A model generated the notes under the pieces. That model saw only the letters and a program-made list of their open reading frames with translations. It was not told the origin of the DNA and ran no database searches. The position numbers and the translations under genes were made by a program. From positions 32,001 through 96,000 of the forward strand of contig CP084166.1 of NCBI GenBank assembly GCA_021513695.1: a stretch of 64,000 nucleotides of DNA, given 5' to 3'. Positions 40,701 through 48,922 of this stretch are shown here, in pieces (within the stretch, counting starts at the first letter, position 1; each line of letters starts with the position of its first letter). This DNA comes from Candidatus Heimdallarchaeum aukensis (GTDB taxonomy: Archaea > Asgardarchaeota > Heimdallarchaeia > Heimdallarchaeales > Heimdallarchaeaceae).

Positions 40701-40913
40701 AGATTTTATGTGACAAAACCTGATGGAAATGTTTCGTTTATAGAACGGACGTTTTATGTCGAAGGAAGTCCAGTTGTCTCTCTACCTTGGGTCTTTGCGG
40801 GAATAGGTGGGGGAGTAGCTATTGGTGTTGCTTCAACTTTGACCGTTTATGCAGGAAGAGCAGGAAAACTGCGATTCTTAAAGAATATCTTTAAAAGAGG
40901 AGGTGCTTCATAA
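34710..40913 (+). CDS. Giant (about 2,070 aa) surface protein: N-terminal signal/anchor, orphan ~1,100-aa alpha-helical domain, internal membrane segment, ~750 aa of thrombospondin type-3-like Ca-binding repeats, C-terminal TM + basic tail
   Basis: ORF track 34692..40913 begins at a TTG; the first ATG is 34710 (MKKSKIKVISIIAIFLLILNVS). Residues about 40-1090 are G/A/I/L-rich helical with no motif I recognise. Hydrophobic block around aa 1040-1130 (IVIGIGVSVIIDIDLVIVGIKITIGFVVTLTF). Then about 20 DxDxDGxxDxxE repeats (DADGDGLPDSYE, DSDDDGLDDYME, DTDGDGLLDGQE ...). Ends VFAGIGGGVAIGVASTLTVYAGRAGKLRFLKNIFKRGGAS. Confidence 0.85.
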   Translation: MKKSKIKVISIIAIFLLILNVSTIYVQGQMVGNETKLMMTGNPTEVYEDQIAILYDPFNDMTRELANSIYETVHMFYSNVKMVKVFNLDSFNRAFYDDDWIKIYVFDSDLKGIKFAGWTMSWRKLTGYYNVFKDTRHIGVYGNSYKMGPYLKTENCYIENTEILDYRIAYIHVLWSLYDIFTEKEDEILQQIGENFKLIAIKYFGDSFEEIMSAEFDPQGLGVVDPKKAEERLQDSMDQYPKRLNKVNPYTGELVDPTAEIEGFNPVMDIKPKAAIDEDDIVLGEFPFLSSIPGAAGDVIKIILEFIGVEIPEGLLTVGKEYGGQIVAIIKEIPKIIGFFKDPSASSAIELFFDVAKEMFPSIEEYKPYFDIVVKALFSIKDIASGDLTPLIDISMELLRFIIPDSVGDFVDDVFDALNISSALSDIISGVTNVGDYLKSFLNRQLITNLMKKFIEQTLDLGGESQKWIDTISEIIMIAYEIASTRDMDHIIADVFPRLGKLVYKNILDMTYDENVENTFKGIAVAIKMGFGAAGIIDVNLKDSFMDLIGFFFPDLVETVNDVKFFVSSIRSQIDSFMDLVKDVSEGKNLDVNNVHDQIISLITELSSLSGHSLDANKINVLSQAVLMALALINGDFEALSDTSCLTSLVDGFLEHFIGLEEGPREIVQKAIEAGAAILPFITGKKSLKKYIMGRLEDFADKFKNPGEIIEKVLYYFLSKYNASTQLYQLIGKIVGIVIDIFSGGFDFSVQNVIQTIISMAVVVLNMLDVNIPLEAMYKSFQLLWEEGPEFSNVVKVVQDIMGLLGGSIDPTIKTTVETVLTFLGGAKNIFKDGIKWIMNQLVGWAAGQIANLLNMLTDKLNELFQSLGDLVSYDSEFPIGFGSFTAFQMRVFFSLSPGFEINPEPIQELIMSMIFDGSKVFDLDNIGELFKLILKSISIIPIFKAGLEIKAGTSGKNDLMKMLLDSLGLELSFSGSAGLTLQLMKISNGKISTSDFFKVIEFFFKFQISIAKTFPLAEFLGPGGAVLAKVAEFLGLGGIYLKIEFFIAIEIVKRCETPTQKAADILTIVIGIGVSVIIDIDLVIVGIKITIGFVVTLTFIQDFLADAPLQVILEIEFTVAVKLTFLFVDWTGTASWGPDPIYLAGGPDDESTKDEMSGLDADGDGLPDSYELGVPGMKVDSDDSDGDGLSDQFEVKTSKTDPITADSDDDGLDDYMEYEVLKTNPLQVDSDYDGLTDYEEVVIYGTDPNAQDTDGDQLDDYYEVNTAWNITGITPSVRFVTIGGVEYKDHTDPLNPDTDGDGLLDGQEGEFGAYYGPELYNTSDPSWDPYPIFYNQGYTHPLDNDTDDDSYKQLANGTIAPDRQFLIYMSDKVEIDGQWVIFIEDDELMGRVVRTNPINPDTDGDSAVMDKSWRGDGAPLDFFLKSDGYELWLDPPTDPNDADMDDDGLIDGLEGWGNKISNHTDPRNPDTDGDGLGDLQDILLGSDPLNPDSDMDGILDGEEFFKYGTNPAYEDTDHDGLLDGEEVYLFHTNPLAVDSDGDGIDDGMEVLVYGSDPMDEDMDNDGLTDWEEIFYYFTNPRDYDSDDDGLSDAMEVLDEYAIYTDPLNWDSDNDSITYPNENGNYTFPLSDGDEVLIYGTDPLTSDTDGDGLHDSFELYLGSGLIYNFTPVPLDPLSNDTDGDGIYDANEYHIANVSNIIYPYVSFIITQPYNTSPVDPDSDDDGIIDGDEVYVYGTMPDMKDTDGDGLDDWSELNIMYTNPLSSDTDNDYLTDWEEWYAGFEHPGYLLDPNDPDYDNDMLPDGPELLLYGSNPNNAYEIDPSSGKVDGLLMDWDHDGLEDGLEFFVYNTSYVAGGGVTQPDSDRDGLMDGAEVYVHGTVPTNWDTDNDTYSDGLEVMLGLDPLTYTTEEEFIAALSANQDMLEAGVLVISPIEGGIYSPSNYTFILYNVTELLGVQYQMKKNKQDFGDNMSMYYDDVSRTWITQGDYIGPGDYIVRFYVTKPDGNVSFIERTFYVEGSPVVSLPWVFAGIGGGVAIGVASTLTVYAGRAGKLRFLKNIFKRGGAS
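37994..38215 (+). other. G/C-rich codon-usage island inside the giant CDS
   Basis: Run of G/C-ending codons (gtg acg ctg acg ... gcg gac gca ccg ctg ... gtc gac tgg) in an otherwise A/T3-biased gene. Contains CTCGAG (38049-38054), GTCGAC (38094-38099) and CTGACGTT twice (38001-38008, 38079-38086). Confidence 0.6.

Positions 40914-48922: not shown

Follow-up and report, generated by a model that had tools for sequence, protein, structure and literature searches.

What a very large archaeal gene is for, and whether its product works alone, is the question raised by the locus considered here. The window, that is the whole stretch of DNA that was analyzed, comprises 64,000 nucleotides (nt) of contig CP084166.1 from Candidatus Heimdallarchaeum aukensis (assembly GCA_021513695.1, positions 32,001 to 96,000 of the forward strand), and nt positions are counted from its first letter. 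The gene in question, an open reading frame (ORF) at 40913..48922 on the plus strand, opens with an ATG, runs over 2,669 codons without any competing long ORF, and encodes a chain of predicted beta-propellers referred to below as the propeller protein. Directly upstream lies a second large gene, the product of which, the partner, carries a long array of calcium-binding repeats of the thrombospondin type-3 (TSP3) kind. Taken together, the data presented below indicate that the two proteins are, on balance, probably the subunits of a conserved calcium-binding complex at the surface of Asgard cells, in which the propeller protein would be the larger one.

The association of the two genes is visible at their junction, where a Shine-Dalgarno-like GGAGGTG is located 7 nt before the ATG of the propeller gene, which itself overlaps with the stop codon of the partner gene (Table 1). 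As judged from this arrangement, the propeller gene is translationally coupled to its upstream partner. In other lineages the two genes overlap as well, or are separated by a gap of at most 20 nt. The partner is encoded directly upstream in L. ossiferum (partner and propeller protein of 2,078 and 2,629 residues, respectively), in an Asgard metagenome-assembled genome (MAG; 2,044 and 2,639 residues), in a Thorarchaeote MAG (2,164 and 2,653 residues), and in two Heimdall genomes; the pair of a 4.9-Mb Heimdall genome, with the same gene order, measures 2,205 and 3,153 residues. tblastn analysis over 85 loci reports a full-length partner ending just before the start of the propeller gene wherever at least 6.5 kb of upstream sequence is present. 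The pair spans the Heimdall, Hod, Kari, Loki, Thor, Hermod, and Njord lineages, and several genomes possess two or three copies of it. Moreover, single ORFs of 4.3-4.9k residues run across both genes at the loci L007, L021, L044, L064, L049, and L051, the named ones belonging to Thorarchaeota. In the fused proteins P0011 and P0012, the partner aligns with residues 60-2054 and the propeller protein with residues 2120-4166. Such a fusion is topologically consistent, because the C-terminal helix of the partner and the signal sequence of the propeller protein would form a hairpin. The pairing is also found among smaller paralogues: a Thor genome encodes a 1,377-residue TSP3 protein followed by a 1,956-residue propeller protein, and a MAG labelled 'Bathyarchaeota' a TSP3 protein of at least 969 residues followed by a 1,477-residue homologue, both with a 4-nt overlap. 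Outside the pair, the flanking genes are not conserved between lineages among the loci compared.

A preliminary description of this DNA suggested multivalent ligand or partner-cell recognition. The repeated fusions, the translational coupling, and the pairing kept even in divergent, shorter paralogues call for a joint function and are difficult to reconcile with a stand-alone multivalent adhesin or lectin of this kind, the propellers of which would bind several ligands or glycans of partner cells, with an upstream gene that is merely co-transcribed and does not contribute to a complex. A stand-alone role would fit the many ligand-binding-type propellers of the chain, its sialidase-fold Asp-box domain, the variability of its domains D, E, and F (see below), and the dependence of Asgard cells on syntrophic partners (PMC9834061). 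The presumed lectin domain is not among the most conserved parts of the chain, and we consider a protein acting by itself unlikely. Two further arrangements were observed behind the pair: an extra FG-GAP paralogue of 2,266 residues in a Thor genome (L005, 16637-23437), and a 925-residue PPC-domain protein with a 3,144-residue FG-GAP protein bearing Lectin_C and lamin-tail domains in Heimdall CP070695 (L006, 19459-29462). These extra paralogues suggest a local expansion into surface-protein islands.

As far as the searches reach, the propeller protein belongs to a small and discrete family, and the pair appears nearly restricted to Asgard archaea. A word-indexed search returns 83 homologues, all with E <= 1e-155, and every organism-named one is from Asgard (Heimdall, Hod, Kari, Loki, Thor, Hermod). 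The closest is that of Candidatus Heimdallarchaeum endolithica (88% identity), in the genome of which the N-terminal 963 residues are 91% identical, and the L. ossiferum orthologue is NEF87_004126. Homologue lengths form a tight group near 2,600-2,670 residues and a second class near 3,100-3,200 residues. A scan of one genome per GTDB species with two peptide patterns, in which 80 loci were kept, identifies at least 78 distinct ones, again in Asgard and adding Njordarchaeum and Harpocratesius; three of these MAGs are labelled Nitrososphaerota or Bathyarchaeota. With residues 95-660 as a query, HMMER returns 152 matches at E <= 1e-3 (108 at E <= 1e-30) from 1.84 billion representative proteins. 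The deposited labels of the homologues read 'hypothetical', 'VCBS repeat-containing', 'FG-GAP repeat domain-containing', or 'PQQ-like'.

The partner comprises, numbered from 34692, a signal peptide, about 1,100 residues without any known domain, the TSP3 region, a small beta-sandwich, a transmembrane (TM) helix, and a 20-residue basic tail. Many of the TSP3 motifs are spaced by 22-23 residues, and Pfam analysis reports TSP3_bac as the sole family (81.4 bits against a cut-off of 25, in 6 stretches). The N-terminal part of about 1,100 residues is made up of an alpha/beta region, a helical region (residues ~300-880), and a conserved hydrophobic beta-rich module (residues ~890-1150). Pfam does not return any match at E <= 1 for the N-terminal 1,153 residues, a PDB profile of the N-terminal 1,150 residues reports only compositional matches to designed helical repeats, and a homologue search with the N-terminal half yields 3 matches, candidates being swamped by low complexity. 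Among 39 orthologues, the TSP3 region is the best-kept part of the partner (0.6-0.77 identity to the consensus), and the helical N-terminal half the least conserved. Thrombospondin-1 has an Arg-Gly-Asp (RGD) tripeptide within its TSP3 region, and the partner likewise has one (residues 1421-1423, 38952-38960). This RGD was considered as an integrin-type ligand site and rejected as a family feature, as it occurs in only about 9 of the 39 orthologues, a Heimdallarchaeaceae subset.

Both proteins share an N-terminal signal sequence, a very large ectodomain, a single C-terminal membrane helix, and a short basic tail. A Kyte-Doolittle scan of the propeller protein reports hydrophobic segments only at the N-terminal signal-type sequence, with its hydrophobic core VLILSLLAIMISSLVVG, and at the C-terminal TM helix; cleavage of the signal peptide likely occurs after VNA, judging by the local sequence. 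The two chains are acidic (Asp and Glu 14.5-17.5%, against about 6.3% for Lys and Arg). N-glycosylation sequons number 36 in the propeller protein and 21 in the partner, against 23.4 +/- 4.6 and 10.6 +/- 3.1 in shuffled sequences, respectively.

The propeller protein is predicted to fold into about six beta-propellers, of which five are of the FG-GAP type (A, B, C, E, and F) and one is an unrelated Asp-box propeller (D), with a beta-sandwich inserted in propeller A. This layout, including the deduced blade numbers and ring closure, stems from the strand pattern of AlphaFold2 models and from profile-profile comparison (hhalign) of sub-alignments. The models were computed from a 48-sequence alignment and cover residues 38-1000 (pLDDT, the predicted local distance difference test, 83.2; pTM, the predicted template modelling score, 0.72) and residues 1000-2199 (pLDDT 83.5; pTM 0.78). 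Both are all-beta, display a four-strand blade periodicity, and match propeller structures. The boundary between B and C corresponds to the cut between the models at residue 1000, which may fall inside a domain. hhalign analysis relates A, B, C, E, and F to one another (93-99.8% probability), region F being homologous to E over ~380 columns (99.8% probability, E 2.9e-28), whereas D and the insert are unrelated to every other domain (probability below 2%). The preliminary description had counted three propellers plus one Asp-box propeller; this count gives way, on the models and hhalign comparisons, to five related FG-GAP-type domains, D, and the inserted beta-sandwich. A PDB search with the whole propeller protein as a single sequence does not return any match at E <= 1, and no NCBIfam model matches it.

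A calcium-binding character of the chain is suggested by its repeats. In its strict form, D-x-[DN]-x-[DN]-G-x-x-[DE], the FG-GAP calcium-loop motif is present in 12 copies (residues 281, 823, 1045, 1122, 1184, 1249, 1309, 1756, 1808, 1864, 2071, and 2113), against an expectation of 0.065 and a maximum of 2 in 5,000 composition-preserving shuffles. A hidden Markov model (HMM) built from these repeats adds 3 degenerate copies (residues 159-188, 215-245, and 695-716), bringing the total to 14-15. The figure of at least 14 repeats given in the preliminary description is thereby reached with 12 strict and 2-3 degenerate copies. The three clusters in which it had placed them are also found, at residues 136-331, 1031-1351, and 1746-2101, one more repeat (residue 823, nt 43379) lying outside. 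Their identification as FG-GAP is upheld by Pfam (FG-GAP_3, PF13517, 60.6 bits against a curated cut-off of 26.9, E 2.3e-16); an assignment to the PQQ family, named beforehand as the outcome that would contradict it, is not obtained, PQQ_2 scoring below threshold (19.1 bits against 27.6), and BamB appears only among weak PDB profile matches (E ~1e-3).

The three Asp-box-like motifs already noticed between the second and third clusters, SHDGVNW (residue 1414, nt 45152), SDDYGANW (residue 1474, nt 45332), and SDDGIHW (residue 1647, nt 45851), are likewise real, standing far above the 0.054 expected by chance (three copies are reached in 0 of 5,000 shuffles), with the canonical S-x-D-x-G-x-x-W spacing in the second only. 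Their Trp is kept in 43, 32, and 48 of 48 orthologues for boxes 1, 2, and 3, respectively, the third box being the best kept (G in 40/48, W in 48/48).

Conservation, expressed for an alignment of 48 Asgard orthologues as the proportion of columns with an identity of at least 90%, is highest in propeller A (28%) and second in C (17.5%), followed by the insert (10%), by B together with the last blades of A (residues 601-1000; 7%), and by E (3.5%); D (0.8%) and F (0.2%) are the two least-kept parts. The ratio of nonsynonymous to synonymous substitution rates (dN/dS) against H. endolithica lies between 0.04 and 0.17 in every domain, and amounts to 0.043 in propeller A, which is 98.3% identical in that species. 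Diversifying selection on the variable domains was considered and rejected in view of these domain-level values. Two motifs of propeller A are invariant across the Asgard orthologues, FEQxH[IL][YF]DP (residues 187-195, 41468-41497) and EYxxHSGYPFxxEHWIxY (residues 244-261, 41642-41695), and are both located, in the model, on the loops that connect strand 3 to strand 4 in blades 2 and 3. This cluster of His, acidic, and aromatic residues could bind a metal or a ligand, or serve as an interface between subunits. At the level of the alignment, the N-terminal propeller is so strongly conserved that it appears to mark a specific conserved interaction. As a separate observation, the synonymous rate (dS) of propeller A (41210-42097) against H. 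endolithica is 0.20, far below that of the rest of the gene (0.47-0.99), for which recent recombination, gene conversion, or a constraint on synonymous sites are possible explanations.

If the two proteins form a complex, they would be made in equal amounts and bind each other with a 1:1 stoichiometry. Propellers A and C and the TSP3 'wire' of the partner may form a conserved, calcium-stiffened core. The fast-evolving exposed faces, which would contact other cells, matrix, or glycans, would then be domains D, E, and F on the propeller protein and, on the partner, its helical N-terminal half. The complex would act by binding or scaffolding, not by catalysis. Calcium-loop propellers, thrombospondin-type calcium 'wires', and sialidase-fold propellers serve adhesion in other organisms. 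Cryo-tomography of L. ossiferum and its relatives reveals a single membrane with unordered, complex surface proteins and without an S-layer (PMC9834061; 10.1101/2025.07.22.663070), analysis of the P. syntrophicum proteome did not detect any S-layer candidate (PMC11284389), and it has been suggested that such surface proteins allow contacts between cells that matter for eukaryogenesis (PMC9834061). The pair would be a candidate for part of these non-crystalline 'complex surface proteins' on S-layer-less Asgard cells. A bolder proposal, which we hold as tentative and rather doubtful, is that the Asgard envelope, which lacks an S-layer, has the pair as its core heterodimeric receptor, and that the structures seen by cryo-tomography are this very receptor. 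It would mediate calcium-dependent contacts between protrusions as well as with syntrophic partner cells, and would be the archaeal counterpart, assembled independently or perhaps ancestral, of the integrin-thrombospondin adhesion system of eukaryotes.

The building blocks, the generic labels of the deposited proteins, and the occurrence of integrin-type repeats in Asgard are already known. The literature searched contains no account of the six-propeller architecture, of the obligate TSP3 partner with its fusions, or of the near-Asgard-only distribution, no paper joining Asgard with FG-GAP or VCBS, and nothing relevant for Asgard and thrombospondin. The pair offers a concrete candidate for the molecular identity of Asgard surface structures, testable in L. 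ossiferum (NEF87_004126 and its upstream neighbour). Should it turn out to be just another large adhesin made of repeats, a useful annotation is gained for a family labelled 'hypothetical', 'VCBS', or 'PQQ-like'.

Several points weigh against a two-subunit binding complex of simple topology. The most conserved module is the membrane-distal N-terminus, and best conservation at this end is unusual for an adhesin; with its invariant His, Glu, Asp, and Tyr motifs, it could point to a conserved ligand or even to an activity. The partner also contains an internal hydrophobic segment of 44 residues (residues 1067-1110, 37890-38021; Kyte-Doolittle up to 2.49), within the conserved beta-rich module just before the TSP3 region, and if this segment enters the membrane, the topology differs from simple type I. 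Lastly, the arCOG07561/arCOG10338 annotation places similar domain combinations under secreted polymorphic-toxin-delivery proteins.

Read literally, these arCOG labels for similar TSP3/VCBS/PQQ combinations would make the propeller protein a polymorphic toxin-delivery or defence protein. Its C-terminal region is indeed the most variable, and an orthogroup (PQQ_2; TSP3_bac; FG-GAP_3), to which the gene may belong, is common to L. ossiferum and P. syntrophicum (PMC9834061 supplementary table). Polymorphic toxins are recognized by a toxin domain that varies at the C-terminus and by an immunity gene next to them, and neither is seen here: the chain ends with the TM helix and five residues, and both proteins of the pair, with tails of 5-20 residues behind the membrane helix, are devoid of a C-terminal toxin domain. 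The variable region F is itself a propeller, related to E; purifying selection acts on all domains; and there is no conserved downstream immunity-like gene, the flanks differing between lineages. A toxin function is, on this evidence, very improbable.

Table 1. Features of the propeller gene, its partner, and their neighbours in the window.
Feature	Residues	Position	Strand	Basis or remark
Partner gene ('UP')	~2,067	34710..40913	+	ORF opens with TTG at 34692; likely start ATG at 34710
Partner, TSP3/COMP-like calcium-binding region	1167-1880	38190..40320	+	at least 20 D-x-D-x-D-G-x-x-D-x-x-E motifs
Coupling junction		40899..40915	+	GGAGGTG 40899-40905; partner TAA 40911-40913; propeller gene ATG 40913-40915; overlap TAATG
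Signal peptide	1-38	40913..41026	+	hydrophobic core, see text
Propeller A, blades 1-5	100-395	41210..42097	+	one strict and two degenerate FG-GAP loops; model, HMM
Beta-sandwich insert in A	396-575	42098..42637	+	no Pfam or PDB sequence relative
Propeller A, remaining blades	576-675	42638..42937	+	strand pattern of the model
Propeller B, FG-GAP-type	676-1000	42938..43912	+	one strict loop (residue 823); hhalign to A 95%, to E 95.5%
Propeller C	~1001-1361	43913..44995	+	five strict loops, D/D/D/E positions invariant
Propeller D, Asp-box domain, predicted sialidase/BNR-type fold with ~six blades	1362-1748	44996..46156	+	three Asp-box-like motifs
Propeller region E, FG-GAP/PQQ-like	1749-2200	46157..47512	+	five strict calcium loops
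Propeller region F	2201-2640	47513..48832	+	placed by homology to E; calcium loops degenerate in this sequence
C-terminal membrane anchor and stop codon	core ~2648-2664	48833..48922	+	sequence and hydropathy; 5-residue basic tail RKNKS
Ras/Arf/Roc-family small GTPase	225	49114-49791	+	directly downstream of the pair
Right-handed beta-helix/NosD protein with TSP3_bac repeats	962	259-3147	+	
Right-handed beta-helix/NosD protein with TSP3_bac repeats	1,038	3498-6614	-	
NAD kinase fused to a C-terminal MarR/winged-helix DNA-binding domain		33340-34392	+	same fusion at locus L003
Two tandem ferritin-like domains	324	49844-50818	+	Ferritin, E 6e-45, two stretches
Cassette of two unannotated ORFs and a serine recombinase (Resolvase)	121 and 149 (ORFs)	50889-52506	+	
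Archaeal type IV pilin N-terminal domain, then CarboxypepD_reg and Ig-like	907	56913-61494	+	preceded by a 618-residue ORF without Pfam match

The window has a G+C content of ~30%, and the neighbours of the pair include a Ras/Arf-like small GTPase and IF-2B. The GTPase was considered as a functional partner and rejected as part of the module, because its synteny is limited to Heimdallarchaeaceae (identities of 95% in H. endolithica and 69% at locus L009) and because it is frameshifted in one genome: the JABLTJ01 (L003) copy extends over three different reading frames and is probably a pseudogene. Among the other neighbours, the two large proteins at the beginning of the window, of 962 and 1,038 residues, are probable surface proteins, and TSP3 repeats recur among several secreted proteins of the H. 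aukensis genome. The resolvase cassette adjoins the pair in the same order in several Heimdall genomes (L003, L008, L013, and L036), and the NAD kinase fusion adjoins nadA and the QPRTase gene, which lie on the opposite strand.

Compared with known systems, several tandem propellers on one chain are also found in DDB1, SF3B130, CPSF160, and Elp2, and these multi-propeller chains are the top Foldseek matches of the models (probability 1.0). However, their TM-scores are low (0.15-0.3), indicating a generic, length-driven match, and these proteins are cytosolic, WD40-like, and devoid of calcium loops; homology of the propeller protein to DDB1-type scaffolds finds no support in the Foldseek comparison.

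Propeller D resembles the GH33 sialidase/BNR propellers in its predicted six-bladed fold with Asp-box motifs, and differs from these, from GH93, and from non-enzymatic Asp-box propellers by its place between FG-GAP propellers. If it were a glycoside hydrolase (GH; sialidase or GH93-like), or if the invariant His/Glu/Asp cluster of propeller A were an active site, the propeller protein would be an extracellular enzyme with the remaining domains serving for carbohydrate binding or as a scaffold. Over the 48 orthologues, D (residues 1362-1748) does not display any Arg at 75% conservation, nor the Arg triad or the FRIP motif; only 3 of its 387 columns are at least 90% conserved, none of them acidic, and invariant acidic or Tyr catalytic residues are absent. 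D is not a canonical sialidase, because it lacks a conserved arginine. At several positions of D that are better kept in the family, the H. aukensis sequence differs from the consensus, e.g., L1437 in place of E. Pfam BNR families stay below threshold (BNR_6, 16 bits against 27; BNR_2, at the corresponding position of homologues, 24-26.5 bits against 31.4), and propeller A returns no enzyme-family match in Pfam, NCBIfam, or the PDB. An enzymatic function is thus decidedly improbable.

The term 'integrin-alpha-like' used in the preliminary description holds at the level of the FG-GAP loops and fails for the overall architecture. As in integrin alpha, FG-GAP propellers with calcium loops are combined with type I membrane topology and a short cytoplasmic tail, a foreign domain lies between blades at a position analogous to that of alpha-I, and a second membrane subunit would be present. 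In contrast, the propeller protein is 2.5 times longer, with six predicted propellers, and the partner is devoid of beta-I/VWA, PSI, and EGF domains, Pfam analysis reporting TSP3_bac only. The thigh, calf-1, and calf-2 domains (Pfam Integrin_alpha2) do not match the propeller protein at E <= 0.1, nor are they listed for any of its 83 homologues; behind the propellers the chain leads straight into the TM helix, and the GFFKR tail motif is absent (regular expression GFF.R; the tail is RKNKS). The profile of the propeller protein matches integrin alpha-V and alpha-6 marginally (E 5e-4 to 0.58, one or two blades), more weakly than ITFG2, BBS2, and CRTAC1, and the conserved N-terminal propeller finds its nearest sequence relatives in ITFG2 and in propellers of the BBS2/BBS7 type rather than in integrins. 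Among 19 orthologues of the N-terminal module, Pfam reports FG-GAP_3 in 18 (E <= 0.01), Beta-prop_BBS7 in 18, and BBS2_Mid in 15, and the similarity is therefore one at the repeat level. A true homologue or precursor of eukaryotic integrin alpha, paired with an analogue of integrin beta or thrombospondin as an Asgard 'eukaryotic signature' receptor, would account for the calcium-loop propellers, the topology, the short tail, the inserted domain, and the obligate partner rich in thrombospondin-type repeats, and integrin-repeat proteins are listed among Asgard eukaryotic signature proteins (Liu et al. 2021, as cited in PMC9258230 and PMC9197732). Considering the missing domains, the marginal similarity, the partner RGD that is not conserved, and the FG-GAP/VCBS repeats also common in bacteria, such an ancestry is most improbable.

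Among FG-GAP/VCBS proteins (CRTAC1, V. cholerae Bap1, ITFG2, BBS2/BBS7), the similarity spans one or two blades only, and the propeller protein differs from them by its five such propellers, its BNR-fold propeller, its inserted beta-sandwich, its membrane anchor, and its obligate TSP3 partner. The partner itself, with its at least 20 tandem D-x-D-x-D-G-x-x-D sites, resembles CglD, MtsC, and MtsD of Myxococcus. NCBIfam analysis reports CglD (NF033765) with 155.8 bits against a cut-off of 400, over profile positions 79-299 of 1124, that is the repeat region and not the VWA/beta-integrin-like half of CglD, and the MtsC and MtsD models match over the repeat region as well; these scores are far below the equivalog cut-offs (400 and 800). 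The partner differs from these proteins by the lack of VWA/EGF modules, by its 1,100-residue N-terminal half without relatives, and by its TM instead of lipid anchor. In Myxococcus, the COMP-like (TSP3) domain of CglD underlies calcium-dependent adhesion (10.1101/2023.10.19.562135).

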